A stretch of DNA of 32,000 bases from Candidatus Saccharimonadota bacterium (GTDB lineage: Bacteria; Patescibacteriota; Gracilibacteria; UBA1369; 2-02-FULL-48-14). Below are positions 5,156-31,862 of the stretch, piece by piece; position 1 is the stretch's first letter; each line of letters starts with the position of its first letter. Made by a program: the position numbers and the translations under genes. A model generated the notes under the pieces. That model had not been told where the DNA came from and ran no database searches. It worked only from the letters and a program-made list of their open reading frames with translations. The DNA is taken from assembly GCA_965230905.1 (NCBI GenBank), contig OZ246396.1, positions 780,001 through 812,000 on the forward strand, read 5' to 3'.

Positions 5156-5285
5156 ACAGCGGGGATAAGGAGGGGGAAATAAAGGTGGATGTGGCTTGCG
5201 CCACGTTCCTGCTTAGCAGACCCGTTGGGTCCGCTTGAACGTAGTAAAACCCCGACCTAAGTGTAGTGGGGCGCCGACGTGGTAG

Positions 5286-5301
5286 ACACAAGATATGGGG
5301 G
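5286..5301 (-). promoter_or_regulatory. NrdR-box-like operator, promoter-proximal copy
   Basis: Minus strand cccccatatcttgtgt matches about 11 of 16 positions of the published NrdR box acaCwAtATaTwGtgt. It lies in the nrdJ upstream region. Confidence 0.45.
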
Positions 5302-5317
5302 ATTTGTGCCAGGTGTA

Positions 5318-5333
5318 CCCCAAGATACGGGAT
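5318..5333 (-). promoter_or_regulatory. NrdR-box-like operator, distal copy overlapping the predicted -10
   Basis: Minus strand atcccgtatcttgggg is a weaker match (about 9 of 16) but shares the core cc[c/g]tatcttg[t/g]g with the other box. The core is offset by exactly 32 bp, which is the typical tandem NrdR-box spacing. Confidence 0.4.
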
Positions 5334-5350
5334 TTTTTTTCCTGGGTCAA
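5322..5350 (-). promoter_or_regulatory. predicted sigma70-type promoter of nrdJ
   Basis: Minus strand TTGACC (5350-5345), a 17-nt spacer, then TATCTT (5327-5322). This implies a leader of about 160 nt. Confidence 0.4.
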
Positions 5351-5498
5351 AGTGATTTAAGTTCATTCCATTTGACGCCGGGGCACAAACTTTTCATGGT
5401 GATACACCGGGGCAGCCGGTCGTGTTCTGCACAAGGTTTGAAGCCCGTTACAAGCAGGGTGTCAAACCCCCCTTTTTTACAAAGTCCCGCCAGGGGTA

Positions 5499-5526
5499 TT
5501 GACATTTTCGCTATAAGGTTTATTAT
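5499..5526 (+). promoter_or_regulatory. predicted sigma70-type promoter of the 5550-7580 gene
   Basis: TTGACA (5499-5504), a 16-nt spacer, then TATTAT (5521-5526), about 24 nt upstream of the ATG. Confidence 0.5.
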
Positions 5527-5549
5527 TTCATAATGCTAACAACTCAAAA

Positions 5550-7580: not shown

Positions 7581-8245
7581 CAATCGCTGTTTCCGCAGCC
7601 ACAGGCGTCACCTTCCTTTTTAGTTTCGTTGCGACCACAACCACAACCGCCACCTCCGCTAGAGCAACCGCATCCGCCGGATTTTTTGGCCGTACTCGTA
7701 GAGAAATTGGGGTTGCTGATTTTGAAACCACTGCCGTAGGCGCTTTCTAAAAAGTCCACTTCGGCGCCGCCCAAGTTGGCCAGCGATTCCGGGTCCAGAT
7801 AAATCTCTACGCCGTGGAACTCAAAAGTCTTATCGTCCGCGGCGCCTTTTTCTGCAAAATCCATGGCGTAGGCGGGTTCGTTGCCACCGTTATCATTTGC
7901 GGTGATGCGAAGTCCGTAGCCTTCTTTATCTTCTGCTTTGGCGAATTCTTTTATTTTGATCGCGGCGTTTTCGGTCACATAAATGCCATCGTCCGGCGCT
8001 CGTTTGCGCGCGGCCGCGAGTTCGTTGATGCGTCCGATCATTTCATCTACCACGGCTTCTTCGATCCCGTGTGACATCGCACCCATTTTGAGCGGCTCGA
8101 ACACGTTTACGCTGCAGCTGGTGCAGTGCAGCCCAAAATCCTGCATGATTTGTGCAGAATCGGGCAGACGGTTCAGTACATCGCCGATCAACATGTCGCC
8201 GTTAATCAACGGTTGTTTCGCTGTTGAGTTCTGTGTTTGTGACAT
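7577..8245 (-). CDS. DUF1858 (redox-disulfide-type) domain fused to a HesB/IscA-like Fe-S carrier domain, with a Cys-Gly-rich tail
   Basis: The N-terminus GDMLIGDVLNRLPDSAQIMQDFGLHCTSCS is DUF1858-like. IYVTENAAIKIKEF...GLRI...GFKISNPN is HesB/IscA-like. The tail reads GGCGCSSGGGGCGCG...CGCGNSDC. The start was trimmed to ATG 8245 because homology begins there. Confidence 0.8.
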   Translation of the reverse strand: MSQTQNSTAKQPLINGDMLIGDVLNRLPDSAQIMQDFGLHCTSCSVNVFEPLKMGAMSHGIEEAVVDEMIGRINELAAARKRAPDDGIYVTENAAIKIKEFAKAEDKEGYGLRITANDNGGNEPAYAMDFAEKGAADDKTFEFHGVEIYLDPESLANLGGAEVDFLESAYGSGFKISNPNFSTSTAKKSGGCGCSSGGGGCGCGRNETKKEGDACGCGNSDC

Positions 8246-11422: not shown

Positions 11423-12097
11423 ATGGCGAGGCGGAAACTCAAACATTTCGATGAGATGAAGGCGATGGCGCACGTGTTTGAACCCACGCTGGCTTGGCAG
11501 AAGGGCGAGCCGCTCCAGTTGAAGGGAAGCTGGGCGCTTGATGGAGGGCGCATAATTTTAGAATTGGCCTGTGGCGGTGGCGATTACACCGTTGGCCTGG
11601 CGCAGCGGTTCTCAGATGCGACGATAGTAGGAGTGGATATTAAGGGAAGTCGCATGTGGTTTGGAGCTCGCAAGGCTGTGGAACTTGGTTTGCCCAACGC
11701 AAAATTTCTGCGCACAAAGATTGAACGCTTGGCGGACAGTTTTGAGGAAGGCGAAGTGGATGAGATTTGGATCACCTTTCCGAATCCACATCCCACGGAA
11801 GGCAATGCCAAGCGCCGGCTCACGTCTCCACGATTTTTAAAAATGTATAAAAAACTCTTAAAGCCAGGTGGCCTGGTGCATTTAAAGACGGACGACGCGG
11901 GTTTGTATGCCTACACTTTGGAAACCCTGCCCGCGGAGGGCTTCACTGTGGAAGTGGCTTTGGATGATGTGTACGGAGCTGCTGAGCGTGGGGAGGCGGT
12001 GGATGCGATTCTAACGGAAGTGCAGACGCAGTATGAAAAACGCTACTTGAAGCTGGGGAAGGCGATTAAGTATGTGAGGGCTAAACTCTTTACCTAA
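11423..12097 (+). CDS. trmB: tRNA (guanine46-N7)-methyltransferase
   Basis: SAM-binding LELACGGGDYTVGLA, VGVDIKG and IWITFPNPHP blocks typical of TrmB. Confidence 0.9.
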   Translation: MARRKLKHFDEMKAMAHVFEPTLAWQKGEPLQLKGSWALDGGRIILELACGGGDYTVGLAQRFSDATIVGVDIKGSRMWFGARKAVELGLPNAKFLRTKIERLADSFEEGEVDEIWITFPNPHPTEGNAKRRLTSPRFLKMYKKLLKPGGLVHLKTDDAGLYAYTLETLPAEGFTVEVALDDVYGAAERGEAVDAILTEVQTQYEKRYLKLGKAIKYVRAKLFT

Positions 12098-12139: not shown

Positions 12140-12805
12140 ATGTTTACGCCGGAAGCTTTCATCTTTGGTTTCACACAGGGATTCGTGATTGGTCCGCTGA
12201 GTTTGTACGCTATTCGTGAAGGTTTGAATCCTAAAAAGGGATTTTGGTATCAGCTTCAGGTTATTTTAGGGTCTTTTGTGGTGGACCTATTTTACTTGTC
12301 ATTGGCTACGTACGGGATTGCTCAATTCGTTGAAATCAGTTGGGTGAAAATGTTTATGTGGAGCGGAGCGGCTTATATGCTCATTCGTATGGGAATCAAC
12401 AGTTTGCGTGAAATGCCCGGACGCATGACCTTTCACCATGCGCATCGACATAAATTGGCTTTCTTCGACACGGACTTCTTTAAAGGCTTCATTGTCAGTC
12501 TGTTCAACCCGATGGCGGTGGTTTTCTGTGTGATGATTGTGGGAAGTTTGTATGCCAGTTATGAAGGGGACGCCAGTCCCGCAAGCTTCGCCATGAGTGT
12601 GAACATGGGAGGTTTTGCCGCTGGACTCATTGTGTGTGCGCTCACGTTTATGATTCGCCAAGTTTTCCATCCTTGGATGCTTAAAAAGGTCATGATGCTG
12701 GGCTCATTTGTGCTCATTGGCTACGGAGTCTACTTCTCTTATAAGGCTCTTTTGGAAGGAGGCCCCATGGTGCAGGCGGCGTTCACTTCCCTTTTGAATC
12801 TTTAG
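12140..12805 (+). CDS. LysE/RhtB-type amino-acid exporter family membrane protein
   Basis: 221 aa with about 6 TM helices. The N-terminal FGFTQGFVIGPLSLYAIREGL...LGSFVVDLFY pattern resembles LysE-family translocators. Confidence 0.65.
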   Translation: MFTPEAFIFGFTQGFVIGPLSLYAIREGLNPKKGFWYQLQVILGSFVVDLFYLSLATYGIAQFVEISWVKMFMWSGAAYMLIRMGINSLREMPGRMTFHHAHRHKLAFFDTDFFKGFIVSLFNPMAVVFCVMIVGSLYASYEGDASPASFAMSVNMGGFAAGLIVCALTFMIRQVFHPWMLKKVMMLGSFVLIGYGVYFSYKALLEGGPMVQAAFTSLLNL

Positions 12806-13637
12806 TAGAGGCAAAATAGTCCTGTATGTACTGCTGGTACGCGGCCATCAGTTGTTTGGTGAGTGTGCCAGGTTTCCCTTTGCCAACTTTTTTTCCGTTG
12901 AGGCGAGTAACGGGAATCACTTCGCGCGGACGGTTGGTGAGGAAAATCTCATCGGCCGACTTCAAGGTGGCAAGTTTGAAGTTTTTTTGAATCACGCGGA
13001 TGCCCAGTTTTTTGGCCAAAATCATAACGCGTTTTCGGGTGAGCCCGGGCAGCATGCCACTTTTTGGCGTGATGAGTTTACCATTCTTCACGATCATGAG
13101 ATTGGTGGAGGCGCCTTCAGGAATGTTTCCATTATTGCTCACCATCAGAGCTTCATAGATACCTTTTGGGAACAGGTCTTTGTAGGCCACGACCATGTGT
13201 GTGAGGCCCACGGTCTTAATTTGGGGGAGTACGCGGTGGAGTTTCATGGTCACTACCGAAACGCCTTCGCTGTAATCTTTGGGATTGAGCACCAGCGGTT
13301 CGCAGGTCACCACGGCCATGGGGTCTTTGGTACAGGTGAAATCGAAGGTGTTGCAGCCTCGGGAAACCGTGATGCGAACGCGGGCGGATTTGGCTTTGTT
13401 GCGGTCCGCGGTGCCTTGAATCCAGTTGCGCAGCTGCTTTTCGGTCCACGGCAGTTCGATGTTCATCACCTGCGCGGAATGGAAGAGACGTTTGAGGTGC
13501 AGTTCCAGTTCAAGCACTTGGCCATGGTAGGTGCGCATGGTGTCGTAAAAGCCGTCGCCGTACAAAAAAGCGTTGTCCAAAACCGAGATTTTGGCCTTTT
13601 TTTCGTCCATCCACTTTCCGTTGATGCAAATAATCAT
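12783..13637 (-). CDS. fold-type IV PLP aminotransferase (D-amino-acid/branched-chain aminotransferase or ADC lyase class)
   Basis: Class IV blocks: VLDNAFLYGDGFYDTMRTY, LHLKRL, IKTVGL (putative PLP Lys), EGASTNLMIVKNGKLITP, LPGLTRK. Substrate class cannot be decided by eye. Confidence 0.85.
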   Translation of the reverse strand: MIICINGKWMDEKKAKISVLDNAFLYGDGFYDTMRTYHGQVLELELHLKRLFHSAQVMNIELPWTEKQLRNWIQGTADRNKAKSARVRITVSRGCNTFDFTCTKDPMAVVTCEPLVLNPKDYSEGVSVVTMKLHRVLPQIKTVGLTHMVVAYKDLFPKGIYEALMVSNNGNIPEGASTNLMIVKNGKLITPKSGMLPGLTRKRVMILAKKLGIRVIQKNFKLATLKSADEIFLTNRPREVIPVTRLNGKKVGKGKPGTLTKQLMAAYQQYIQDYFASTKDSKGK

Positions 13638-15040
13638 GTGGTTTCGTTACAAAGCAGAGTATAGATAATTGGCCAGTTGCTTTCAAAGGCATTCGCCAGC
13701 GTGATCTTCCCCAGGGCTTCCTGAGCTTCCGCCAGGGTTTTGCCCGTGCCGTGGAGCAGGAGGTCCAGATTCAGGGCGGGGCGGTCTGTTTCCAAAAAGA
13801 GAGTGTTGAGTCCGTAGTTGTATAAAGTGCTGTTGGCTTGGCAGGGCTCGGCATCCGCGCCGGCGCGGTTGTAGACTTCCTTCATTGCGTGTAGGTAGTG
13901 CATTTGGTTGAAGCCACCCAGGCAGTTGAAGCCGTAATACAGGTGAACCACCGTGTAAATGAGCAGCAGGTTGGGCATCAGCGCTTTCTCGCGCAAAGCC
14001 TGTGCCACCGCCTCGGGGGTGAAGGGCAAGCTGAAGCGGCCGTCTTCGGTGCAGAGTTGGCCGTCTTTACGTTGAAGTTTAGTTCGAGTGTTTTTTTCTG
14101 GATTCACCCACCAGAACAGGTGAGTCGCCAAATTTCCTTGGCGCAGGAATTCCTCCATGGCCGCCGTGAGGGCATCCAAGAGCGTGGCGTGGTTTGGGTC
14201 AAAGATCAGTTTGTGGATGAGGCTAGCGCTCTGCAGGTGATTTTCCAGAAGCAGTTCCGTCACCAGGGTTTCCAATTCCACGTAAATCAGGCTTTTGGCC
14301 TGGGGCTCGTTTTTGAAGATTTTTTGCCAGAGTTCGGCGTTGATTTGGGTGAACTGGTCGCACAGAGAAGGCGCTGAAAGGATTTCTGGCTTTTTATAGA
14401 TTTCCGTGAGCACGGCAAAAAGTTGGTCGGCCTCGGCGGTGCTGACCTCACCATTCCGCAGTTTTTCACGCAGGGCTTTTTCAATTTTCACGATTTCTTC
14501 CAGGTTGTACGGCCTAAAACCATAGACCAGGCTGCTGTGGCTGTTGCTCGGTAAAATGGAGAGCTTTTGAAGTTCGTAGGAGTCATTTTTGGCTGAGTGG
14601 AACAGAAGGCCGCGGGGATAGTCTTCGTTGTTGAGGGAAACGCTGGAACAGCTTAGGACGACCACGTTTTTGAGGACTGGATCGTTGAGTTCAGCGGCTG
14701 CGGTGGCCAGCATCAGGTTGGCGCTGGTGGGCAGGCTGGAGTTGAGGGTTCCGTGGTGGTCGGCGCTGGAGGCGCCGTAGTAGGCGTTTAATTGGACTGC
14801 CACCTCGTCGGCTTTGGCGGTGCCTAGGCGGCTGGCCACAATTTTATTAAAGCTACGTAAAAACTCCTCCTGGCGCTCCGGAGAGGCGGCGGGCAGGTTT
14901 TTCAGGTTGGCGATGGCAAAGTCCTTTAAAGACAGGTTCCCGTATTTCTCTATCAACTCTTTAAGCAGAGGGCGTTTCTCAAAGATGAATGCCTTCTGTT
15001 CAGCTGAGGTCGTACCGGCTTGAGTTTGCAGAAAAAACAT
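13634..15040 (-). CDS. unknown-family protein, copy A (468 aa), paralog of 17964-19499
   Basis: ATG ORF whose stop overlaps the aminotransferase start by 4 nt. It shares blocks with copy B: YYxxSxADHxG, DPxxxNVxVLxC, (Y/F)PRGL(L/F)FH, P(N/S)LLL, CLGGFNQxxYL. No family recognised. Confidence 0.8.
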   Translation of the reverse strand: MFFLQTQAGTTSAEQKAFIFEKRPLLKELIEKYGNLSLKDFAIANLKNLPAASPERQEEFLRSFNKIVASRLGTAKADEVAVQLNAYYGASSADHHGTLNSSLPTSANLMLATAAAELNDPVLKNVVVLSCSSVSLNNEDYPRGLLFHSAKNDSYELQKLSILPSNSHSSLVYGFRPYNLEEIVKIEKALREKLRNGEVSTAEADQLFAVLTEIYKKPEILSAPSLCDQFTQINAELWQKIFKNEPQAKSLIYVELETLVTELLLENHLQSASLIHKLIFDPNHATLLDALTAAMEEFLRQGNLATHLFWWVNPEKNTRTKLQRKDGQLCTEDGRFSLPFTPEAVAQALREKALMPNLLLIYTVVHLYYGFNCLGGFNQMHYLHAMKEVYNRAGADAEPCQANSTLYNYGLNTLFLETDRPALNLDLLLHGTGKTLAEAQEALGKITLANAFESNWPIIYTLLCNETT

Positions 15041-15078
15041 AGATGCTCAGTCATTATAACAGGTTTGGCTGGGCCTTG

Positions 15079-15831
15079 CTATGCTTTGTCGAAGTGTTGC
15101 CAGTCGCTTTCGCCTTCCCAGTCGCCGCCCCATCCCCATCCGTTGGCTTTAAAAGTACTCACCACGCTATCTCCTTCCACCAGCACGCCCGGCTTACCAG
15201 CTTCATAAACGGCTCCTTCAGGAACAATCGTACCGTCTTTGCGATAGTGAGGGTTCAGCAGGGGATTGATGTCCACCGCGCGGCCCTTTGCGTGTAGTGA
15301 CATGATAGTGGTGCCTGCGATAGTGCGGTAATTGAAGCCGGAGCTGTTGTCGGCGAGCATGGAGGCGTCGTCGTCCCATCCAAACTGGGAAACCGGGATG
15401 GCGGATCGAATGGGGAATTTCGCTTTAAAAGCAGCTGCAAAGACCGCTTCCACCTCCTCTGCCAGCTCCTCGTCCACCACCATTTGGCCTTTATGGGTCA
15501 GGCCATCGAAGCCCATGTAATACACGTCCAAAAGCGTTTGTTTGGCGAGGAGATCTTCGGGGCAATCGTCTCGAAGGCCGTTTACCACGCCTTCTACATA
15601 GGAGAGTTCGGCGTCTACCACGGCGTCGGTGGGGGCTTCTTCTAGGCCATAGTGTGCCAGCTTAGCGGGCCGGGATTGCAGTTTTCCCTCGGCCTTCATC
15701 TGCAATAAACAGGTGATTTTACTACGAAGAGCCGCCACCTCTGCGGTGACGGGCTCTTGTAAAACATTTTCTAGGGTGCTGAGTTCGGCAGCTCGTTGGT
15801 ACTCGGTTCTGCCGGGGGCGTGCTCGATCAT
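15079..15831 (-). CDS. M15-family zinc D-Ala-D-Ala carboxypeptidase/dipeptidase-like peptidase (VanY/LdcB-like)
   Basis: SLHAKGRAVDINP (SxHxxGxAxD) and GWGWGGDW...DWQHFD motifs. No signal peptide. Confidence 0.8.
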   Translation of the reverse strand: MIEHAPGRTEYQRAAELSTLENVLQEPVTAEVAALRSKITCLLQMKAEGKLQSRPAKLAHYGLEEAPTDAVVDAELSYVEGVVNGLRDDCPEDLLAKQTLLDVYYMGFDGLTHKGQMVVDEELAEEVEAVFAAAFKAKFPIRSAIPVSQFGWDDDASMLADNSSGFNYRTIAGTTIMSLHAKGRAVDINPLLNPHYRKDGTIVPEGAVYEAGKPGVLVEGDSVVSTFKANGWGWGGDWEGESDWQHFDKA

Positions 15832-15860
15832 TTGACAAGTTAGTAATTATGTTCTATAGT
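15832..15860 (+). promoter_or_regulatory. predicted sigma70-type promoter for the tandem M14-like genes
   Basis: TTGACA (15832-15837), a 17-nt spacer, then TATAGT (15855-15860). The ATG is at 15892. Confidence 0.55.
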
Positions 15861-15872
15861 CCTAAGCTAGAC

Positions 15873-15901
15873 ACTATAACCCCTAGATTAAATGGAAGCA
15901 A
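15873..15901 (-). promoter_or_regulatory. predicted sigma70-type promoter for the M15/copy-A/aminotransferase operon
   Basis: Minus strand TTGCTT (15901-15896), a 17-nt spacer, then TATAGT (15878-15873). This mirrors the plus-strand promoter. Confidence 0.4.
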
Positions 15902-16899
15902 ATCAATTTGATTTCTCACAGGAGACACTCGATCGGGCTAATCGTTCATTGATGGAATCAGAGCACCGTGGAGTACCTGGAGTTCAGGAATTCCGTGGAG
16001 AGGTTGCCGGCCCTTCGGATCCTGTTTTATACATTGGTACTCACACTCATGGAGATGAACCAGGATCAGGGGCTATTGTTCCAGCACTTATAAGTGGGCA
16101 AGTTAAGGTAGGGCGGGGTCGAGTAATTGTTGGGGTGAATAATTTGGACGCAGCGCGTGAAGGAAAACGATTTCTAAAGGGTGGACTCAACTTCAACCGT
16201 CTTCCTGCTGACGATATGTTGGCAGGCGCACATGCGAATAATGCTTCATTAGATTTTCAACGTATGCGAGCCTTGGCACGAGCCGGTTTATTGGAGGCTA
16301 CTCATGGCCTGGATCTTCATACCATCCCACATTCACCGGTTCCTGGGTTTAAGCTCCACGAGAAGGGTGACTATAATTTTGCTAATGCTATTGGAATCGA
16401 AGACTTTATTGCAGAGATCACTAACAATCAGTTCGATTCAGAGAACCCTGCCGGACCTAAAACGGTTGCCTTCGGAAATTATATTGGTGGTTTAGAAAAC
16501 AATATTCCAGTTGCTGAAATCGAAGGAGGAGGACCTGAAACACCTGCAGTTCGTAGAACCGTTGCACAAGGAACTCTTTCTGTTATGGCTCAGTTGGGAA
16601 TGATAGATCCTAGCCGTTATGGCCTCGAGCCAAGAGAAATAGAACAACGTTTATATACGGTTACGGATTGGGCTTGGGCTCCAGCGGGTTACACCTTAGC
16701 TCGACAATTTGAACCCTACGCAAGAATGCAAAAAGGCGAACCTGTAATGGTTGATTCTACGGGAGCAGGACGACCTGACATCGTGGCTCCTAGAGATGGA
16801 CATCTTATTATGCCACCTCCTTTTGGTAAGCCTCTTGCTGGTCCAGATGACTGGTGGCATTCCGCTCCAGTTGAGGTGAGCCGACAGAAGGTACTGTAA
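15892..16899 (+). CDS. AstE/AspA-type (succinylglutamate desuccinylase/aspartoacylase, M14-like) zinc hydrolase, copy 1
   Basis: GTHTHGDE (HxxE zinc site), NFNRLP, LDLHT (third ligand) and AEIEGGGP (catalytic Glu region). No signal peptide. Confidence 0.7.
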   Translation: MEANQFDFSQETLDRANRSLMESEHRGVPGVQEFRGEVAGPSDPVLYIGTHTHGDEPGSGAIVPALISGQVKVGRGRVIVGVNNLDAAREGKRFLKGGLNFNRLPADDMLAGAHANNASLDFQRMRALARAGLLEATHGLDLHTIPHSPVPGFKLHEKGDYNFANAIGIEDFIAEITNNQFDSENPAGPKTVAFGNYIGGLENNIPVAEIEGGGPETPAVRRTVAQGTLSVMAQLGMIDPSRYGLEPREIEQRLYTVTDWAWAPAGYTLARQFEPYARMQKGEPVMVDSTGAGRPDIVAPRDGHLIMPPPFGKPLAGPDDWWHSAPVEVSRQKVL

Positions 16900-16932
16900 A
16901 TTGACAGACCCTGATGTTGCCTTCATATTGAT

Positions 16933-17967
16933 TTGGTGCTGTACAAAATCACGACTTACGCGGAAGATCTTTTAAGGCAAAGTGTTGAGGCTTTGATGTC
17001 TTCTGTGTACCGAGGAGTACATGGAATTTATGAAATCAAAGGAGAGATTCAAGGGCCTTCTCAACCAACTTTATACGTAGGAACTTACACGCATGGTGAC
17101 GAGTTGCTTTCAGGTTCACCCATTTTACCCCTCCTTAAAGGTGATATTCGGCTAAAAAGAGGGCGGATTTTGCTCGCGGTCAATAATCTTGAGGCGACTC
17201 AAATGGGGCTGCGTATGGTTCCGGGTGAGATAGATTTTAATCGGCTGCCTTTAGAAGATGTCATGACCAGTTCGGACTCTAATCCCTCTTTGAGTCTGCA
17301 GCGGCTGCAGTCTCTAGGGAAAATAGTGCTTGAGGCAAGTCATGGGTTTGAAATTCATACCACCCCCAGTAAGCCTTATTTGGCTATGAGGCTGCCCATT
17401 AAAGGCGACCAGGCTTTTTCAGAGGCGATAGATGCGGAGATTTCCATCCTCAATATTACTCAGTTTCAGAAAGACTGCCGGGACCCGGACGGTCCTTGCA
17501 CCTTGGCATTTGGGAATTATATTGGCGGTTTGGAAAATCCCATTCCCGTGGTGGAATTGGAAGGAGGGGGGCCTCAGACTGCGGAGAACAATCCGCTCCT
17601 CTATGAATCGATTCTTCGTGCCTTGCTCTCAGTTTTGGCGCGTTTGGATATGATTGATGCCGAGGAATATGGGCTAAGCCCAAAAACCATTATTCGGAAG
17701 GTGTATGAAGTGATAGATTGGCAATGGGCTTCTCCTGGTTACGTACTTCCTCGCTTGTTTGAACCGTTTGCTTATTTGAAAAAAGGCGACGTGGTAATGC
17801 AAGATGGTACAGACTCTGGTTTGCCACCGATTCTCATGCCTGAAGACGGACACCTGGTGCTCCACCCCTCCTATAAAATAAAGGATGGAAAGCCAATGCC
17901 CTCCACTCATCCAAAAGATTGGTTTGTTTCTAAACCTGTGCACTTAGAATCTGTGGAAGTCCTTTAG
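16933..17967 (+). CDS. AstE/AspA-type (M14-like) zinc hydrolase, copy 2 (tandem paralog)
   Basis: GTYTHGDE, DFNRLP, FEIHT and VELEGGGP, collinear with copy 1. Similarity extends upstream of the first ATG, so the start must be TTG 16933 or GTG 16936. Confidence 0.7.
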   Translation: MVLYKITTYAEDLLRQSVEALMSSVYRGVHGIYEIKGEIQGPSQPTLYVGTYTHGDELLSGSPILPLLKGDIRLKRGRILLAVNNLEATQMGLRMVPGEIDFNRLPLEDVMTSSDSNPSLSLQRLQSLGKIVLEASHGFEIHTTPSKPYLAMRLPIKGDQAFSEAIDAEISILNITQFQKDCRDPDGPCTLAFGNYIGGLENPIPVVELEGGGPQTAENNPLLYESILRALLSVLARLDMIDAEEYGLSPKTIIRKVYEVIDWQWASPGYVLPRLFEPFAYLKKGDVVMQDGTDSGLPPILMPEDGHLVLHPSYKIKDGKPMPSTHPKDWFVSKPVHLESVEVL

Positions 17968-19499
17968 TCCTTCGGAATCTCGATACAAGGTTCGGCTTTA
18001 TCGTGAAGGCCAATCATCTCGCTGAGTTCCTTTTCGGTGATGGATTCCAGCTCGGGTTCCCATTCTTTTTTGTCGTAGGAGATTTTGTACATTTCCGGCA
18101 TCAGGGGGGTCAGCGCTTCTTCAAAGGTGATTTGCTTAGCGGAATCCACCAGGCGTTGCCAGCTGTCTTCTTTCCCGTACAAAATAAGGTCGGGACCGCT
18201 GGCTAGGCCCACCTCGTGGTCTCCGTATTCCATGAACGCAAAAGTGAGTCCGTCGCAGATCTCCTTGGTTTGTGCCCGGGCACAAACTTCAATACTGCGG
18301 TAGTTTCCAATATCCACGTTCATTTTAATGTAGCCGTTCTTCATGTGGGTGAGGTAGTTCACTTGGTTGAATCCGCCGAGGCATTTCACGCCGTAGTAAA
18401 AAGAAACGGTGGCGAAAGCCAGCAAGAGGCTGGGGATGAGTTCTTTTTCTTCCATGGCCTTTTGAATGATTTCCGGTTTGAGCTCAATTTTGTAGGATTC
18501 ATCTTTGGACACCAAGAAATTCCCTTTCCGCCAGAGTTGCAGGTTGCGCTTGCTTCCTTTTGGCAGCGCCCAAAACAGGTAGGTTCCGGATTCATCGGCT
18601 CGTGAGAAGGAACCAAAAATGCCTTCAAAATACTGGTTGATGTAGGGCTCGTAGGTGAGGTCGAAAAGGATGTGGTTCAAAATAGTGTGTTCGTAGAGAT
18701 GGTGCTTGATTAGTAGGCGAACCACGATGTCCTCCAATTCCAGGTAAACCAAGTTGGGAAGCTTCACTTTGCTGGTGGCGAAAAGGCGTGGCCAGAGTTT
18801 GAAGTTGGTTTTGCTGATTTGCTCCATGTAGGAAGCGGAGTTGTAAACTTCGGGTTGGTCGTAGACTTCCTGCATGAGTTGGGTCATTTTTTCGTGTTCC
18901 ATGGCGCCGATCTCGCCTTTGTCGAGCTTGATTTTTAATTCTTTGAGGATTTTTTCCACTTCCACCTTGGTGTAAGGGGGTAGGGTGTAAACGGCGGGTG
19001 GACGGGTGTTGGCTGAGAAAAAAGACATGCGGTGGGTTTGCAATTTTCCTTCACGCACATTGTGGAAAAAGAGCCCGCGTGGGAAAGAGGAGTTGTCCAC
19101 GGAGATGTTTGCACAGGCCAGTACGATGACATTTTGAATGGCTGGATCGGAATGATCGGCCATGGCGGCTGCCGTGAGCAAGTTTGAGTTCAAAAAGAAC
19201 GGATGGGTGATGGGCCCGTCGTGATCGGCCGTGGAAACGAAATAGTATTTTTTGAGCTGATTCACCACGGAGTCGGCCAGTTTTTTATCAAAACGGCTTT
19301 CCACCACTTCGGCTACCACACCCAAAAATTCATTCTGTCGCCTAGGAATGGTAGGGGGGAGGTTCACATCCACGTAATCGTGGGAGTATTCGAGGAGTTT
19401 TTTGGATCCTCGTTTCTTTAGAATTTCGTCTAGGACAGGTCTTTTTACGAGTACTTTTTCTTTTAAGCGTGCAAATCGATCGGCTAGGTCACCTTGCAT
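17964..19499 (-). CDS. unknown-family protein, copy B (511 aa), paralog of 13634-15040
   Basis: Same conserved blocks as copy A (YYFVSTADHDG, FPRGLFFHN, CLGGFNQVNYL). The start was trimmed to ATG 19499 because the track start overlaps rlmN. Confidence 0.8.
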   Translation of the reverse strand: MQGDLADRFARLKEKVLVKRPVLDEILKKRGSKKLLEYSHDYVDVNLPPTIPRRQNEFLGVVAEVVESRFDKKLADSVVNQLKKYYFVSTADHDGPITHPFFLNSNLLTAAAMADHSDPAIQNVIVLACANISVDNSSFPRGLFFHNVREGKLQTHRMSFFSANTRPPAVYTLPPYTKVEVEKILKELKIKLDKGEIGAMEHEKMTQLMQEVYDQPEVYNSASYMEQISKTNFKLWPRLFATSKVKLPNLVYLELEDIVVRLLIKHHLYEHTILNHILFDLTYEPYINQYFEGIFGSFSRADESGTYLFWALPKGSKRNLQLWRKGNFLVSKDESYKIELKPEIIQKAMEEKELIPSLLLAFATVSFYYGVKCLGGFNQVNYLTHMKNGYIKMNVDIGNYRSIEVCARAQTKEICDGLTFAFMEYGDHEVGLASGPDLILYGKEDSWQRLVDSAKQITFEEALTPLMPEMYKISYDKKEWEPELESITEKELSEMIGLHDKAEPCIEIPKD

Positions 19500-19526
19500 A
19501 TGCTTTCTTGATTTAGGATGGCGATA

Positions 19527-19536
19527 ATTTATACCA
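19527..19536 (-). promoter_or_regulatory. possible extended -10 promoter element for copy B
   Basis: Minus strand TGGTATAAAT lies about 28 nt upstream of ATG 19499, in the 68-nt gap after rlmN. Confidence 0.3.
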
Positions 19537-19567
19537 TTTTTAGAAAAGAAGCAAAGGGTGGGCGTTT

Positions 19568-20644
19568 TTACTTCTTCCCACCCAAAACAATCAACTGGCC
19601 ACAAGCAGCGGCAATATCGTCGCCCATGGTTTTGCGCATGGTAACAGGGACGCCGCGGCGTTCGAGGATCTCTTTGAAACGGTCGAGTTGGGCGCGGGTG
19701 GAGCGCTCCATGCCGATGTCGGTGAAGTTGTAGGGGATCATGTTCACCTTGAGCGGTTCTTCGCCGTGGCGGCGGCCGGCGGTGAGTTCGCGGACGAGGT
19801 CGGCGAGGACTTCGGCGTGGCGGTCGGTGTCGTTGATGTTTTTGAGCATCACGTATTCAAAAGTCAGGTGGTGGCGGCGGTTGCCGTGGACCACTTGGTA
19901 GCGCTTGATCCAATCTTTGAGTTTGCCAATAAAGCCGTCGAAGGAGCTGGGCACGATTTCCTTGCGGGTGATGGGGTCGGCGCTGTGCAAAGAGATGGCG
20001 AGACGGGTGTCGGGCCAGTCGGGATCCACCAAGATTTTTTCCAAAACTGGCAGCACGCCCACGGTGGAAACGGTGATGTGCGTGGGGCCGAGGTCGGTGT
20101 ATTTGAGCCAGGTGTGGATGGTGGTTTTCACATTTTCGTAATTGGCCAGCGGTTCGCCCATTCCCATAAAAACCACGTTGCTGATGCGCTGCTCGCCCTG
20201 GAGTTCCGTGTGGATGAAGTTTTGCCAAAAGCGATATTGATCCGTTATTTCGTCTGCGGTCAGGCTGCGGAGTAGGCCCATTTTTCCGGTGGCGCAAAAG
20301 GTGCAGCCCATGGCGCATCCAACTTGGGAGGACACGCAAATGGTCCAGTCGCCGCGCATGTTTTCCATGAGCACGGTTTCCACTTTTTGTCCGTCTTCCA
20401 GCTCGAGGAGCGCTTTGTGGGTGTCCCCGCGAGCACTGCGCATGATCTGCTGGCCAATATAAGAAAGCCAACGCGCGTTTAGGGTCAGCGTTTCGCGCAT
20501 GGCCAGTGAAAGATTCGTGATGTCGTGCCAGCCGAGTTTTCCAGGTTTAAAGAGGTTCTCCTCAATCTGCTTCCAGCGGAAGGATTTTTCATTGGGAAAA
20601 AGTTTCTGGAAGAGCTCGAAACGGGTTTTTATTGGTGTCGCCAT
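19568..20644 (-). CDS. rlmN: 23S rRNA/tRNA adenine-C2 methyltransferase (radical SAM)
   Basis: Radical SAM GCAMGCTFCATG, plus GMGEPL and DDIAAACGQL blocks typical of RlmN. Confidence 0.93.
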   Translation of the reverse strand: MATPIKTRFELFQKLFPNEKSFRWKQIEENLFKPGKLGWHDITNLSLAMRETLTLNARWLSYIGQQIMRSARGDTHKALLELEDGQKVETVLMENMRGDWTICVSSQVGCAMGCTFCATGKMGLLRSLTADEITDQYRFWQNFIHTELQGEQRISNVVFMGMGEPLANYENVKTTIHTWLKYTDLGPTHITVSTVGVLPVLEKILVDPDWPDTRLAISLHSADPITRKEIVPSSFDGFIGKLKDWIKRYQVVHGNRRHHLTFEYVMLKNINDTDRHAEVLADLVRELTAGRRHGEEPLKVNMIPYNFTDIGMERSTRAQLDRFKEILERRGVPVTMRKTMGDDIAAACGQLIVLGGKK

Positions 20645-22066: not shown

Positions 22067-22981
22067 TTACAAGTGTGGTGCCATGACTTCTTCCACCAGC
22101 CATTCCAGCGTTGCCTTGACCATGCTTACGTTTTCTCCGCTGTACAAACTTTTTACTTTTATGTCAGCGGCGGGGCAGCGGACTTTTGGTTCAGCTGGGG
22201 TTTCTTCTGCTTCGAATTGCTGGATCAGTTTTTCTAAAACGCCTTCTTTAATATGTAAGACGGGGTAGTCTTTGCCGGATTCGTGGTTTAGGTAAAAGTT
22301 ATCTAAATTTATGCAAGGATGGAGGCCAATGTTTTTGTGTATGTACGAGATCAAAGCCTCCGATCCATTGGCCAGCCGTTGAGTCAGTTGGCTGAACTCC
22401 GGAGAACGGAGGATTTTTAAAAAAAGCTCCCCGGGTATTGGCCCCCCGGAGTTTGGAAAATCTTTTTGGTAAAGCCGGTCTATCAATTCACTAATGTGGA
22501 TTAGCAAGGAAATGGCACCATCTATTTCACTGTTTATATGGTCTTCTGGCGAAGGATATCGAGTTCCCTTGGTGGATTCAATTTTAACAATTTCTGTTAA
22601 TTTTGCGTGAGCTTCTTTTTGGAGAGTGCTGAGGTCCACCGGCACCTGGGTCGCCATTTTTTTGAGTGCTTTAAACACAAGCAATTTTGCTTCTTCCGCG
22701 AACACATGATATCGGTCCGGATCGATTTTCAGGTGATGGCTTAGCCACGCATGATCCACCGTGTGATTCTCTTCAAAAACAGACCAGAAAATTTGTGAAA
22801 CGTAGTAAGCTGTGAGAGCTCTTTGTGGAACTGCTTCTAGGCTGCTAAGAACGGGGTCTAGGCCGTGTGCCTCCACTTTTGAGGCTAGGTTTTTGTAAGG
22901 CAGTCCCGCCCCTTCGTGTTTAGCGGCTAGGATTATTTTCGTGTGAAATGGGCATCCGCTGGGTTTTTCTGAGTTGTTCAT
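22067..22981 (-). CDS. hypothetical soluble protein (304 aa), first gene of a three-gene operon
   Basis: ATG ORF with normal composition. The N-terminus contains GCPFH. No family recognised. Confidence 0.7.
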   Translation of the reverse strand: MNNSEKPSGCPFHTKIILAAKHEGAGLPYKNLASKVEAHGLDPVLSSLEAVPQRALTAYYVSQIFWSVFEENHTVDHAWLSHHLKIDPDRYHVFAEEAKLLVFKALKKMATQVPVDLSTLQKEAHAKLTEIVKIESTKGTRYPSPEDHINSEIDGAISLLIHISELIDRLYQKDFPNSGGPIPGELFLKILRSPEFSQLTQRLANGSEALISYIHKNIGLHPCINLDNFYLNHESGKDYPVLHIKEGVLEKLIQQFEAEETPAEPKVRCPAADIKVKSLYSGENVSMVKATLEWLVEEVMAPHL

Positions 22982-23110: not shown

Positions 23111-23356
23111 ATGATTTCAGAAAAGGCCACTGTTATGCAAAATAACACGATTTGTATCCCTAAAAAGCTTCGTCTGAAGCTGAATATTAAGCCCAAGGAT
23201 ACTTTAATGGTGGTATTGAAGGGGGACTCCCTGCAGATTAAAAAATACCAACCCACTACTTTAAACGATTTGGTTGGGATTGGAAAAGAAGCTTATAAGT
23301 CTTATGGAGGAGGAGAAGCTTATCTCAAAAAAGAACGTGAATCGTGGAACGATTGA
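23111..23356 (+). CDS. vapB: AbrB/SpoVT (MazE/VapB-type) antitoxin
   Basis: The N-terminal KATVMQNNTICIPKKLRLKLNIKPKDTLMVVLKGDSLQIK matches the swapped-hairpin AbrB pattern (..IPK.iR..l.i..gD.l). It lies 2 nt upstream of a PIN gene. Confidence 0.75.
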   Translation: MISEKATVMQNNTICIPKKLRLKLNIKPKDTLMVVLKGDSLQIKKYQPTTLNDLVGIGKEAYKSYGGGEAYLKKERESWND

Positions 23357-23358
23357 TT

Positions 23359-23793
23359 ATGCGTAAAAATGTGAATTTATATGCCGGGAAAAGGGTAGCC
23401 ATTGATACCATGCTCATGATCTATGTACTTGAGCATCATCCAGAGTACATGCAAGTGGTGGCAGAAATTTTTGAGGACGCGCAATCGGTGATTTGCTCCT
23501 CGTTTCTTCTTGGAGAGTTGTTTGCCGGTCTATACAAAAAGGGGGATCAAAAAGCAGTGGATACTATTTTGGGCTACGTTGAGGATGCAGAAAATCTGGA
23601 AATTTACCCTTTCGATCACTCGACCAGTTTAGTTTTTGCAAAATTACGTGCACAGCATCCCAACTACTCTTCGCCAGATTGTATTCACCTTGCCACTGCT
23701 CTTCAATTTGAAGCTGATGTGTTTATCACCAACGATAAAAGACTTAAAAATTTGTCGGGTCTGAAAGTCTTGAATTTGGAGGAGTTGCTTTGA
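23359..23793 (+). CDS. vapC: PIN-domain ribonuclease toxin
   Basis: Acidic PIN residues are in place: VAIDTM, LGELFAG, DCIHLATAL, FITNDKRL. The ATG at 23359 was preferred over the GTG track start. Confidence 0.8.
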   Translation: MRKNVNLYAGKRVAIDTMLMIYVLEHHPEYMQVVAEIFEDAQSVICSSFLLGELFAGLYKKGDQKAVDTILGYVEDAENLEIYPFDHSTSLVFAKLRAQHPNYSSPDCIHLATALQFEADVFITNDKRLKNLSGLKVLNLEELL

Positions 23794-23795
23794 GC

Positions 23796-24530
23796 TTATT
23801 CCAACGGTAGCTTGAGGTCGCTGGGCAGAGTGTCCGTGGGGAGGTTTTCTTCGATTATCGGATCTTCTTCGGCTTCTTCCTCGAGTTCTTCTTCCTCTTC
23901 ATCCGTGGAATCTGGTATTACGATTGGATCAATTTCTGTGATATTGAATTCAATATCAAGGGCAGCTTCTTCGTGAAGATTAAACACAGAGTCGAAGGTC
24001 GATTCAATTTCGGCGACTTCCTCTTCTTTGCCTTCTGCTTTTAATTCTTTAAGGTGCTCCACAACGGCCTTGGCGTTTACGTCCAATTCCTGTTTGACCT
24101 CGGTCTTTATTTTAATGTCGAGTTTACCTGCGTTCTTTAAGGTTTCCACCTCTTCGAGACGACGTTCGATGCGGTCGAGTTCCCACTGAGCTTTGGACTT
24201 AGCGTCGAAATAGAAAAAGCCCTGCACTTGTTCGTTCACGTGGATTTTAACTGGGTAGAGAAGGTCACCGGGCACGGTGGATTCGGCGGCATAAGAAAGT
24301 CCGCTGGCAGAAACCACAAATACTCCGAGCAAGGTGGCAGTGGCTGCCATGGGGCGTCGGGTCATTGCGTAGAAACGGTCTAAGAAACGGGTGAAACCGC
24401 GGTCGTAATTTTGCCGGTGCACAGGATTTTTTTCCATGAATTCCAAGAATTCATTTCGTCCATCGCTCTTTTCCTCCTCGGAAAGACAAATAGAGTGGAC
24501 CGCATTTTTTAGTTTCTTAAATTCTTTCAT
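23796..24530 (-). CDS. putative anti-sigma/DUF5667-like membrane protein
   Basis: It overlaps the ECF sigma gene by 14 nt. It has a short cytoplasmic N-terminus, one TM helix (AATATLLGVFVVSASGL) and PGDLLYPVK as in DUF5667. The C-terminal tail is acidic. Confidence 0.6.
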   Translation of the reverse strand: MKEFKKLKNAVHSICLSEEEKSDGRNEFLEFMEKNPVHRQNYDRGFTRFLDRFYAMTRRPMAATATLLGVFVVSASGLSYAAESTVPGDLLYPVKIHVNEQVQGFFYFDAKSKAQWELDRIERRLEEVETLKNAGKLDIKIKTEVKQELDVNAKAVVEHLKELKAEGKEEEVAEIESTFDSVFNLHEEAALDIEFNITEIDPIVIPDSTDEEEEELEEEAEEDPIIEENLPTDTLPSDLKLPLE

Positions 24531-25032
24531 AGTTTCTTAAATATTTACGTAAGTCTTGTAAAGCCCGGTTTAGGCGCACCGAAACCAGGTTTTCACTGAT
24601 CCCCAGGGCATCAGCTGTTTGTTTGAGTGAGAGGTCACTGAAGTAGCGAAGCATCACTACTTCCTTGTATTCATCCTTCACATGCTCCAGAATTTTGAGG
24701 GCGTCTTTGGCGTCGAGTTCATCTTTGAGTTTTCCGCTTCGGTCTTCACCGGGTTCGATCCCAAATTCTACCATATCCTCCAGGGAGTCGGTTCTTTTTG
24801 AGCTGGGGCGACGGCTGTGATCAATAATTAAGTTGGTCGCAATCTTATAAAGAAGGGACTTGAGATTCTCAATTTTTTCTTCGGTTTCCCCGTAGTGTTT
24901 CCAAGCTTTCATAAAGGTTTCTTGTGTGAGATCCTTGGCGAGTTCGCGATCGTAAACTCTAAGGTAACAATGGCGGAATATGGCATCTGCATGTTTGTCA
25001 TAAGCTTCGGCGAAAATTTCTTGAGGCTGCAT
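24517..25032 (-). CDS. ECF-type RNA polymerase sigma-70 family factor
   Basis: Region 2 (AIFRHCYLRVYDRELAKDLTQETFMKAW) and region 4 HTH (SLKQTADALGISENLVSVRLNRALQDLRK). Confidence 0.9.
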   Translation of the reverse strand: MQPQEIFAEAYDKHADAIFRHCYLRVYDRELAKDLTQETFMKAWKHYGETEEKIENLKSLLYKIATNLIIDHSRRPSSKRTDSLEDMVEFGIEPGEDRSGKLKDELDAKDALKILEHVKDEYKEVVMLRYFSDLSLKQTADALGISENLVSVRLNRALQDLRKYLRNYERI

Positions 25033-31000: not shown

Positions 31001-31862
31001 GGCGAAAGTGAGCAACCATGGAGTCGATGTAAAATTTTGGATCAGTTTTGTCAGGGGATGTTCGCAGACGCCAGTTTTTTGTGGCCTGGTCTTCATTTTC
31101 AATAAGCCCCAGGTGGGCGATCCGTTCGTGCGCGGTGCAAAGTGGCCTTAATCGCCCAGGATCGTGGACTTTTTCCAGGGCAAAACGTTGGGTATGGTGC
31201 AGAGAGGTGGCGGGTCTTTTGCAGCTTGGGTAGGAACATAGGCTGCTGGTTCGATTGTCGACATATTCAACAATCGCTTTAGGAATGTAGCGAGAGTTGC
31301 TTTGAACAGGTGAGGGTTGTTCAATTTTTTCACGGGCAGCGGCTTCTTTTAGGACTTTCTCTAAGATTTCTTCAAAGTCGCTGCGTTTCTGAATTTCTTT
31401 TAATTGTTTTGCCAGTTCGGGCCTTAGCTCTAAGACCACTTTTTCAGATAGAGATTCCGGCCCGGGCCGGAATTCTACCCTGTAATCTTTTACGTAGGTC
31501 GTCAGGGTGTGCTTGCTCATAGACTTAATCTTTTCAGCCCAAAAGGATTGATTTTCTTCTGTAACTAAGTTGGCCACCGGTTTTACTCGATATAGACCTT
31601 TTTCTTTCACTAAATCAAGAAGGGCAGGCTTGTCTGCTATCTTCTGTAAAACTCGTAGGGCTTCGTCTACCGTGTAGCGACTCATGCCCGCCAGCTTGGC
31701 GGCGTACTCGTAAATGCTGGAGAATTTTTTCTTACGCCAAATTTTTAGGCGATCGATTTCGGGTAGCAGTAAAATGCATTTCCGAGTCCATTCACGCGCG
31801 TTTTGGCCGTATTCTGAGAATTGCTGGTGGAGGACTTGTTCGAGGGGAGTGAGCTTTGCCAT
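30993..31862 (-). CDS. HNH endonuclease domain protein with DUF222-like N-terminal region
   Basis: C-terminal CSYPSCKRPATSLHHTQRFALEKVHDPGRLRPLCTAHERIAH (HNH). It converges on trhO with an 8-nt overlap. Confidence 0.8.
   Translation of the reverse strand: MAKLTPLEQVLHQQFSEYGQNAREWTRKCILLLPEIDRLKIWRKKKFSSIYEYAAKLAGMSRYTVDEALRVLQKIADKPALLDLVKEKGLYRVKPVANLVTEENQSFWAEKIKSMSKHTLTTYVKDYRVEFRPGPESLSEKVVLELRPELAKQLKEIQKRSDFEEILEKVLKEAAAREKIEQPSPVQSNSRYIPKAIVEYVDNRTSSLCSYPSCKRPATSLHHTQRFALEKVHDPGRLRPLCTAHERIAHLGLIENEDQATKNWRLRTSPDKTDPKFYIDSMVAHFRPT

Follow-up and report, generated by a model that had tools for sequence, protein, structure and literature searches.

A candidate peptide-building gene cluster of Patescibacteria contains two BshC-like proteins of an un-annotated family

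The Gene Cluster and Its Layout

The DNA analyzed here is a stretch of 32,000 nucleotides (nt), referred to below as the window, from a Candidatus Saccharimonadota bacterium (GenBank assembly GCA_965230905.1, contig OZ246396.1, positions 780,001 to 812,000 of the forward strand). Our subject is a gene cluster that encodes two proteins, copies A and B, of an un-annotated family, together with an aminotransferase, an M15 peptidase, two AstE/AspA-type hydrolases and an exporter. Our analyses revealed that models of A and B resemble BshC, an enzyme of bacillithiol synthesis, and that family genes adjoin or are fused to ligase and racemase genes in other bacteria of the candidate phyla radiation (CPR, or Patescibacteria); our tentative interpretation is that the cluster builds a small amide or peptide. 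All seven open reading frames (ORFs) of the original prediction, a note made from the sequence alone, were found again at the same coordinates and on the same strands, and Pfam and profile matches agree with its gene inventory. The features are as follows.

12140-12805, plus strand: LysE-family amino-acid exporter, 221 amino acids (aa); PF01810, E = 2.9e-17, with strongly hydrophobic stretches
12783-13637, minus strand: fold-type IV (class IV) pyridoxal phosphate (PLP) aminotransferase of a non-canonical subfamily, 284 aa; PF01063, E = 3.4e-52
13634-15040, minus strand: copy A, BshC-like Rossmann protein, putative amide-forming ligase, 468 aa; from an AlphaFold2 (AF2) model and Foldseek
15079-15831, minus strand: M15 zinc peptidase, predicted to be cytoplasmic, 250 aa as an ORF (possibly 206 aa); PF13539, E = 4e-16
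15832-15891, no strand: spacer between the divergent genes, with a promoter-like site directed at the hydrolase genes, TTGACA-17-TATAGT
15892-16899, plus strand: AstE/AspA-type zinc deacylase, paralogue 1, 335 aa; PF24827, E = 5e-5 (below cutoff), orthologue profile and motifs
16933-17967, plus strand: AstE/AspA-type zinc deacylase, paralogue 2, 344 aa from TTG 16933; 45% identity to paralogue 1, and motifs
17964-19499 (ORF to 19604), minus strand: copy B, BshC-like Rossmann protein, putative amide-forming ligase, 511 aa; from an AF2 model and Foldseek

The ATG of the aminotransferase gene overlaps the stop codon of copy A by 4 nt (13634-13637), and copy B and the second hydrolase share a stop/stop overlap, also of 4 nt. 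The LysE-type gene, which lies outside the coordinates of the original prediction, runs toward the aminotransferase gene from the other side and overlaps it by 23 nt. In our neighborhood survey, which covered 83 loci on independent contigs (numbered below with the prefix L), LysE orthologues of 50-56% identity hold the equal position in L007 and L025; being syntenic in other genomes, the LysE-type gene is part of the conserved cluster. Gene calls and orthologues place the start of copy B most likely at ATG 19499, which would end the cluster ~105 nt before 19604. The M15 orthologues are ~206 aa long, and three of them begin at the residue that corresponds to M45 in the window ORF, which carries a 44-residue N-terminal extension (15699-15831); judged by these orthologues, the true M15 start may be ATG 15699. 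A start at M45 makes the divergent spacer 192 bp, so the 60-bp divergent region of the original prediction stands for the long M15 ORF and falls with the shorter one. With the long ORF, the 60-bp spacer contains a near-consensus promoter (TTGACA-17-TATAGT, 15832-15860, plus strand) with 11 of 12 matches, which is a match to the consensus only.

For the second AstE-like gene, the gene caller placed the start at 16996 (323 aa), yet homology to paralogue 1 reaches residue 9 of the ORF that begins at TTG 16933; a promoter-like TTGACA-17-CATATT lies ahead of this gene at 16901-16929. The original prediction took the chemistry to be intracellular because its hydrolases lack export signals; all seven of its proteins are predicted to be cytoplasmic, as none has a hydrophobic stretch resembling a transmembrane helix or a signal peptide (maximum 19-residue Kyte-Doolittle value ≤1.42). 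An Rfam search of the cluster revealed no riboswitch and no T-box, and hence no ligand clue. Genetic code 25 was rejected, as every gene is intact under table 11.

Copies A and B Belong to an Un-annotated CPR Family

By sequence, copies A and B are paralogues of one large un-annotated family. They share 31% identity over ~470 residues (E = 6e-85), and neither matches a Pfam or NCBIfam family, which agrees with the unassigned family of the original prediction. Comparison of 24 family members with Pfam at E ≤ 10 returned only noise, and a sequence-profile search of the PDB with A and B gave two chance matches only and did not recover BshC (4wbd). Source names and cluster look-ups for the family yielded "hypothetical protein" or no name at all, and in the literature on the BshC mechanism, on BshC in Patescibacteria and on cyanophycin in Patescibacteria we found no description of the family or of its pathway.

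A word-indexed search recovered 25 homologues with A and more than 346 with B, the latter all hypothetical and all from the CPR. In an exhaustive profile search of 1.84 billion representatives, 1,204 clusters (counted at 50% identity) matched at E ≤ 1e-3 and 597 at E ≤ 1e-30. Every named source organism belongs to the CPR/Patescibacteria, and the sources include Peribacteria, Peregrini-, Magasanik-, Kerfeld-, Lipton-, Falkow-, Roizman-, Doudna- and Saccharibacteria and Paceibacterota. Copy A has an 89% identical relative labelled Candidatus Gracilibacteria and further relatives from Peribacteria and Peregrinibacteria, and copy B represents the more conserved and more widespread subtype. Five loci with CPR-type family genes (L020, L024, L039, L040 and L075) are labelled as uncultured Gammaproteobacteria. 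A gammaproteobacterial origin was rejected, since their flanking gene clusters are common with the Kerfeldbacteria loci L017 and L052, and these labels are probably wrong.

In an alignment of 266 members, 18 positions are conserved at 87-100% (copy A numbering): D94, H95, S135, N138, R143, Q229, N234, W238, E257, H268, W310, D333, Y368, Y369, G375, G376, Q379 and D426. Among these, D94, H95, N138, R143, Q229, E257, G375, G376, Q379 and D426 reach 89-100%. Both window copies retain the family-wide conserved residues, and the pattern of conservation is the one expected of an enzyme.

BshC Is the Structural Match of the A and B Models

AlphaFold models of the two copies, built from different alignments, had predicted local distance difference test (pLDDT) values of 91.9 for A and 93.1 for B. 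When these were compared with the PDB by Foldseek, BshC of Bacillus subtilis (4wbd) was the only match with E < 0.001 for either protein. Specifically, A matched with E = 1.6e-7 (probability 1.0, 418 aligned columns) and B with E = 2.7e-6 (probability 1.00, 501 aligned columns of 511 residues), with template modeling (TM) scores of 0.44-0.46 and identities of 11-13%. By these matches, both models have the BshC fold, which is marked by a Rossmann core with insertions of the connecting peptide CP1/CP2 type, and the BshC structure paper reportedly describes such a core with connecting peptides of the type found in class I aminoacyl-tRNA synthetases (aaRSs). The sequence models of BshC (PF10079 and NCBIfam bshC) matched neither A, B nor the 24 relatives. 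Neither bshA (GT4) nor bshB (LmbE-type) turned up close to family genes, whether in the loci annotated with Pfam or in the most frequent recurrent neighbor clusters within 6 kb on either side at the 83 loci. As judged from the models, A and B represent a new family within the BshC fold class and not BshC orthologues.

In the models, an invariant histidine in the motif [ST]-A-D-H-H-G lies right after strand 1, at the HIGH position of class I enzymes, and an invariant GG-F-N-Q motif lies at a strand-to-helix turn; neither fits the HIGH or KMSKS consensus. These features of the models suggest that A and B may bind a nucleotide. BshC itself is genetically assigned as the cysteine-adding enzyme of bacillithiol synthesis, but no study has reconstituted its reaction or identified the activated donor (PMC5790435; PMC6178380).

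The fold also brings in an explanation in which A and B derive from an aaRS and either take aminoacyl-tRNA as the donor, like cyclodipeptide synthases and Fem transferases, or act on RNA. The class-I-aaRS-like fold favors it, as does the second Foldseek match of A, the class I lysyl-tRNA synthetase 1irx (E = 0.02); in addition, RNA methyltransferase genes (RlmN, TrmB, RlmI-like) flank the family in many loci, and BshC is suspected to need an unidentified activated cysteine (PMC5790435). We nevertheless regard such a role as very improbable. Pfam and NCBIfam detect no anticodon-binding, tRNA-binding or other RNA-binding domain in A, B and their relatives, and there is no aaRS among the Foldseek matches of B. 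The methyltransferase neighbors are ordinary housekeeping genes, are divergently transcribed and may reflect synteny only, and the enzymes fused to family members act on small molecules.

The Family Is Joined to Ligases, Racemases and Aminotransferases across the CPR

The genes of the cluster recur together with shuffled order and orientation (L004, L007, L008, L010, L011, L013 and L033). Where both copies are present, B is 58-65% and A 38-51% identical to its window counterpart, and thus the neighborhood outlined in the original prediction is conserved in relatives as a reordered set of co-occurring genes. The full arrangement of the window recurs in L007 only, in another order, with identities of 51-65% except for its single AstE-like gene (30-35%). 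Pairs or triplets of family paralogues occur in 16 loci, one of which, L075, is probably a single split gene. A class IV aminotransferase gene lies within 3 kb of a family gene in 17 loci, and in 9 of these B is the only copy; the core pair is therefore B and the aminotransferase.

ATP-grasp genes adjoin family genes in ~24 loci. The nearest relatives of the common type are the G domain of CphA1, the ATP-grasp half of GshAB and N-acetylglutaminylglutamine synthetase, and only the G-domain region of CphA1 (residues ~205-470) is matched, with 182-188 bits against a cutoff of 850; the scores lie far under the family cutoffs in general (182 bits against 850-877). The other type is similar to LdmS, an L-Asp-L-Met ligase. 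True fusions of family proteins exist with both types, namely with the CphA-G/GshAB-like ATP-grasp in P0121, P0123 and P0167 and with the LdmS-like L-amino-acid ligase (ATP-grasp) in P0076. The window contains no ATP-grasp gene and has the second paralogue instead. A CphA-G-like ATP-grasp was present in none of the 16 multi-copy loci but in 21 of the 67 single-copy loci (Fisher p ~0.009, uncorrected for phylogeny). This count covers the CphA-G-like type only; multi-copy L075 has an LdmS-like ATP-grasp but looks like a split gene. The exclusion pattern fits a second paralogue that replaces the second ligase. A 'cyanophycin synthetase' has been described, without a cyanophycinase, in 5 of 21 metagenome-assembled genomes of Ca. 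Lutisaccharimonas (Saccharimonadia; bioRxiv 10.64898/2026.09.16.751625). This protein could be the CphA-G-like ATP-grasp partner and not a true CphA1.

A CntK/DapF-like racemase gene adjoins a family gene in 5 loci, and the racemase is fused to B-type proteins in P0026 and P0177. An Asp-type racemase (TIGR00035, above cutoff) stands beside a family gene in at least one locus, L087 from Liptonbacteria, where the order is Ddl (minus strand) / Asp-type racemase > family > ATP-grasp. The D-amino-acid and peptide theme of the original prediction is therefore borne out by three structurally unrelated kinds of enzyme that adjoin or are fused to the family: the fold-type IV aminotransferase, the CntK/DapF-like racemase and the Asp-type racemase. 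AstE-like genes were found in 7, M15 genes in 4 and LysE genes in 3 of the 83 loci, and the remaining recurrent neighbors are housekeeping genes.

A chance juxtaposition of unrelated housekeeping genes would agree with the ordinary housekeeping genes that flank the cluster in the window and with the roughly one-half of B-type loci that have no informative neighbors. The same gene set, however, recurs rearranged at 40-65% protein identity, with translational overlaps and true fusions, and we hold chance to be extremely improbable.

The string in L087 bears on an explanation in which A and B, or a family member and an ATP-grasp enzyme, attach side-chain or cross-bridge residues, D-Asp or D-Glu among them, to UDP-MurNAc-peptide or lipid II, resembling the D-aspartate ligase Asl(fm) and its racemase in Enterococcus faecium, with the M15 and AstE-like enzymes trimming precursors. 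BshC and MshC, which acylate the amino group of an amino sugar, would count as precedents. Further points in its favor are a VanW/PG_binding_4 gene near a family gene in L086, the action of M15 enzymes on peptidoglycan stem peptides and the Gram-positive-like envelope features of Peribacteria, such as sortases (PMC4736985). However, Ddl in L087 is the only such gene beside a family gene in the Pfam-annotated loci and the annotated neighbor clusters, which show no Mur, Fem, MraY or MurG neighbor. Moreover, all canonical peptidoglycan genes are reported in Ca. Peribacter, with none known to be missing (PMC4736985), and the LysE exporter and AstE-like deacylases would be left unexplained. We consider such decoration of peptidoglycan precursors rather improbable. 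Replacement of Ddl by A or B was also considered and rejected, given the canonical Ddl beside the family gene in L087 and the complete peptidoglycan gene set of Ca. Peribacter (PMC4736985).

The Aminotransferase Belongs to a Non-canonical Subfamily

The nearest solved relatives of the window aminotransferase are archaeal branched-chain amino-acid aminotransferases (BCATs; 1e-47), followed by D-amino-acid aminotransferases (DAATs; 1e-30). The protein scores under every NCBIfam equivalog cutoff, for example 218 bits against 363 for PRK08320 and 180 against 246 for ilvE_I. Its catalytic lysine is present (PQIKTVG). The window motifs YGDGFYDTMR, RVR and TNRPRE are conserved in 13-18 of the 18 cluster-linked orthologues, which share a signature of their own: [YF]GD[GA]x[YF][DE]T[ML][RK] and an invariant RxR on the beta-Y strand, with TNRPRE in place of the GTAA/STTS beta-turn in 13 of the 18.

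These motifs match none of the canonical sets for BCATs, DAATs or R-selective transaminases (R-TAs) (Table 1 of PMC8401098). With respect to canonical DAATs, FxxxxYxV[IVA][KR] and HxY...[RK]xH are absent, there is no RxH loop, and the scores fall under the NCBIfam DAAT cutoffs. With respect to BCATs (YxxxxF[ED]Gx[KR], YxR and GTAA), the substitutions are F36 to Y, G38 to T, Y95 to R and GTAA to NRPR. Like BCAT and the Haliscomenobacter DAAT, the window enzyme has the beta-Y-strand arginine, but unlike known fold-type IV transaminases it combines a BCAT/R-TA hybrid motif 1 (Y....YDT.R) with RxR as motif 2 and NRPR at the beta-turn. Its stereochemistry cannot be read from canonical motifs. D-specificity is still possible, because non-canonical DAATs exist, and a strongly positive O-pocket has been proposed as a mark of it (PMC8401098). 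The extra arginines predicted in both pockets (RxR and NRPR) hint at a dicarboxylic D-amino acid, which they would suit.

The Hydrolases Are an M15 Peptidase and Two AstE/AspA-Type Proteins

The M15 assignment rests on a PF13539 match above cutoff (E = 4e-16) and on the motifs SLHAKGRAVD (178-187) and DWQH (243-246), which are invariant in four orthologues. The DxxH stretch aligns with those of the L-Ala-D-Glu peptidases 2vo9 (Ply500) and 6akv (LysB4). Orthologues of 60-64% identity are present in L007, L042 and L046.

The two M14-type hydrolases are 45% identical to each other. In single-sequence searches, paralogue 1 matched PF24827 with E = 5e-5, below the cutoff, and paralogue 2 matched nothing in Pfam; NCBIfam gave no match for either. 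Among related genes, PF24827 matches were found in L005 and, faintly, in L007. By contrast with the single sequences, a profile of nine orthologues matched the whole length of the succinylglutamate desuccinylase 1yw6 (E = 5.5e-8), as well as aspartoacylases at ~1e-5, with 1yw4, 2gu2 and 2o4h also matched, whereas MpaA structures reached only E = 0.013-0.037 over ~60 residues. The AstE/AspA type of the original prediction is thus weak for the single sequences and good for the orthologue profile, and its comparison with MpaA is the weaker description (5e-8 to 1e-5 for AstE/AspA against 0.01-0.04). Both paralogues carry the motifs HGDE, [DN]FNR, [DE][LI]HT and E[IL]EGG, which in paralogue 1 are HGDE53, NFNR100, DLHT141 and EIEGG209, and H53, E56, N102, R103, H143 and E211 are invariant in the nine orthologues. 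We take the H-x-x-E motif and the distal histidine to be the zinc ligands, the N-R pair to bind a carboxylate and the glutamate to be catalytic, as in AstE/AspA-type proteins. By these profile matches to solved members and by their motifs, the two proteins belong to the AstE/AspA deacylase family.

The hydrolases are the starting point of the explanation offered in the original prediction, namely that the cell salvages or catabolizes peptides with D-amino acids, of the cell-wall type or others, after importing them. In this scheme the M15 and AstE-like enzymes would cut the peptides, the aminotransferase would turn D-amino acids into keto acids, and A and B would re-use or re-ligate fragments in the manner of Mpl. 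The logic resembles murein-peptide recycling in Escherichia coli by MpaA, LdcA and Mpl. Two kinds of cytoplasmic peptide or N-acyl hydrolase clustered with a class IV aminotransferase agree with it, as does the reliance of CPR cells, with their few biosynthetic genes, on external amino acids (PMC4736985). We nonetheless think it unlikely. Among the partners, the hydrolases show the least conservation (7 and 4 of 83 loci), whereas ligases and enzymes that form D-amino acids prevail and even occur as fusions with family members; there is no conserved importer, and the conserved transporter comes from an exporter family. In addition, the M14-type genes are nearer to AstE/AspA than to MpaA, and the core proteins have a ligase-type fold. 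The catabolic direction of the original prediction is therefore not the one we favor, as the partners mainly form bonds or substrates, the fold is BshC-like and no uptake system is conserved.

The AstE-like genes also allow a protect-transform-deprotect pathway of amino-acid synthesis, in which the ligase would acylate an amine, the aminotransferase convert a carbonyl and the AstE-like deacylase remove the protecting group. An aminotransferase, an AstE/AspA-type deacylase and an acylating enzyme form the recurring logic of the arginine, lysine (LysW), diaminopimelate (DAP)-succinylase and arginine succinyltransferase (AST) pathways, and AstE itself comes from one of these. Against this, no kinase, reductase or dehydrogenase step was found in any annotated locus, the racemase and ATP-grasp fusions are unexplained, and CPR genomes are largely without amino-acid biosynthesis (PMC4736985). 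We rate such a pathway as highly improbable.

A Proposed Module for Building a D-Amino-Acid-Containing Amide or Peptide

Our favored explanation, to which we give a little less than an even chance, is that the cluster forms a cytoplasmic module that builds, and does not scavenge, a small amide or peptide containing a D-amino acid, with A and B as amide-forming ligases. We favor a biosynthetic direction because the bond-forming and D-amino-acid-supplying partners dominate and are fused to the family, the hydrolases are sporadic, and the fold is that of an amino-acid-adding enzyme. The non-canonical fold-type IV aminotransferase would make an unusual amino acid from a keto acid, our guess being D-Glu or D-Asp. 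Copy B, and then copy A, would act as BshC-like ligases that either activate a carboxylate, possibly with ATP, or take an activated aminoacyl donor and join it to an amine. Two successive bonds would be formed in this way, and in other CPR lineages an ATP-grasp ligase would make the second. The M15 enzyme, acting on X-D-amino-acid bonds, and the AstE/AspA-type enzymes, acting on N-acyl-Asp/Glu-type bonds, would hydrolyze the product, its precursors or mis-ligated side products, and the LysE-type protein would export the product or an amino acid.

An aminoacyl-D-Asp/Glu product would agree with the bonds that the M15 and AstE families cleave (X-D-Glu-like and N-acyl-Asp/Glu). Hints of an acidic amino acid come from the aminotransferase arginines, the cleavage of N-acyl-Glu/Asp by characterized AstE/AspA enzymes, the M15 alignment and the Asp-type racemase of L087. 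The product might be a cofactor resembling glutathione or bacillithiol, a compatible solute, a polymer of the cyanophycin kind or a peptidoglycan side chain.

Several known systems resemble this proposed module in part. BshC (YllA; 4wbd, PF10079) is a near whole-chain structural match to both A and B, and the role assigned to it by genetics is the joining of an amino-acid carboxylate to an amine as an amide; unlike BshC, the family has racemases, an aminotransferase and ATP-grasp enzymes as partners, has no bshA/bshB-type genes nearby and is restricted to the CPR. The fused members recall GshAB/GshF and CphA1 in placing an N-terminal ligase-like part that is not ATP-grasp before a C-terminal ATP-grasp, so that two ligase types would form two successive bonds. 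The N-terminal domain of the family is, however, BshC-like and not the glutamate-cysteine ligase of GshAB, and the Mur-ligase-like M domain of CphA1 (N, G and M domains) is missing from the family systems. In van operons, the racemase VanT, the ligase VanC and the M15 enzyme VanXY are encoded together, and E. faecium has the pair Asl(fm)/Rac(fm). Like the cluster, these systems follow a logic in which one enzyme forms the D-substrate, a ligase uses it and an M15 hydrolase edits the pool, but their ligase fold differs, canonical Ddl coexists with the family in L087, and no resistance or regulatory genes are found here. Murein-peptide recycling in E. coli (MpaA, LdcA, Mpl and YcjG) is similar in its cytoplasmic zinc amidases on D-amino-acid peptides and its ligase; here, by contrast, there is no Mur-type ligase, permease or YcjG-type epimerase, and the family partners are synthetic.

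Several observations weigh against this proposal. The likeness of the family to BshC is at the level of the fold only (11-13% identity, TM ~0.45) and has no sequence or profile link. The term BshC-like, moreover, does not prove ATP-dependent ligation, because not even BshC has had its reaction reconstituted or its donor identified (PMC5790435). Two types of hydrolase are unusual in a biosynthetic cluster, and with these genes catabolism is equally compatible. The CntK-like racemase points to His-like and not acidic substrates, and the amino acid may therefore differ between lineages. The locus counts are not independent observations, as retrieval relied on two conserved motifs and many of the loci are related by descent. 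About half of the B-type loci have no informative neighbor. Finally, the aminotransferase in L006, which follows B and A, is of class I/II (PF00155, 9071-10219). In that locus, the class I/II enzyme in place of the class IV enzyme looks like a non-orthologous displacement of the amino-group supplier.

In broader terms, the CPR may hold a previously unrecognized class of amide-bond-forming enzymes, distant structural cousins of BshC, which with an ATP-grasp enzyme or a second paralogue and with D-amino-acid suppliers make a lineage-specific small peptide or peptide-decorated molecule; we rate this as a real prospect that falls somewhat short of probable. There is a substantial chance that the product or the chemistry is new. 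The CPR makes up a large share of bacterial diversity, with minimal genomes and many conserved genes of no assigned function, and this family is kept in genomes of roughly 1 Mb, often in two copies, yet is absent from Pfam and NCBIfam. Its partners point to chemistry that can be tested, D-amino-acid supply and peptide-bond formation, and could bring to light an undescribed metabolite of the CPR, or a trait of the cell wall, that matters for episymbiotic life. For over ten years the BshC reaction has defied reconstitution (PMC5790435), and a soluble relative with obvious substrate-supplying neighbors offers a new route; if the proposal is true, solving the chemistry of the family would reveal how BshC works.

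Further Observations on the Window and Related Loci

TrmB and RlmN genes border the cluster on its two sides in the window (11423-12097 and 19568-20644). An RlmI-like PUA/SAM RNA methyltransferase gene lies beside a family gene, the aminotransferase gene or LysE in 11-12 loci, including distant ones of the Doudna-/Saccharibacteria type (L007, L012, L025, L028, L032, L034, L042, L046, L068, L073, L080 and L090). The flanking by RlmI-like, TrmB and RlmN genes may be plain synteny or an RNA link.

In seven loci (L068, L069, L073, L078, L080, L081 and L084), the family gene has no ATP-grasp partner and stands in a string of the order pilin-like > family > small ORF > HlyD-like > ABC ATPase > two FtsX/MacB permeases. 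This string suggests a link of the family to a MacAB-type exporter. In L005, two genes of 332 and 467 aa (4940-5938, minus strand, and 6566-7969, plus strand) lie between the CntK-like racemase and the A-type gene, and a Peptidase_S51 gene lies ~2 kb downstream. The products of these two genes have no Pfam match and are not family members, as is the case for the un-annotated neighbors in L085; those in L005 may be additional components.

Elsewhere in the window, four ORFs have no Pfam match: 5550-7580 (plus strand, 676 aa), 22067-22981 (minus strand, 304 aa), 255-818 (minus strand, 187 aa) and 30993-31862 (minus strand, 289 aa). At a distance of ~4 kb from the cluster are a MazE/PIN toxin-antitoxin pair (23135-23793, plus strand) and genes for an extracytoplasmic function (ECF) sigma factor and its DUF5667 partner (23796-25032, minus strand), with coordinates converted from the gene calls of L001.

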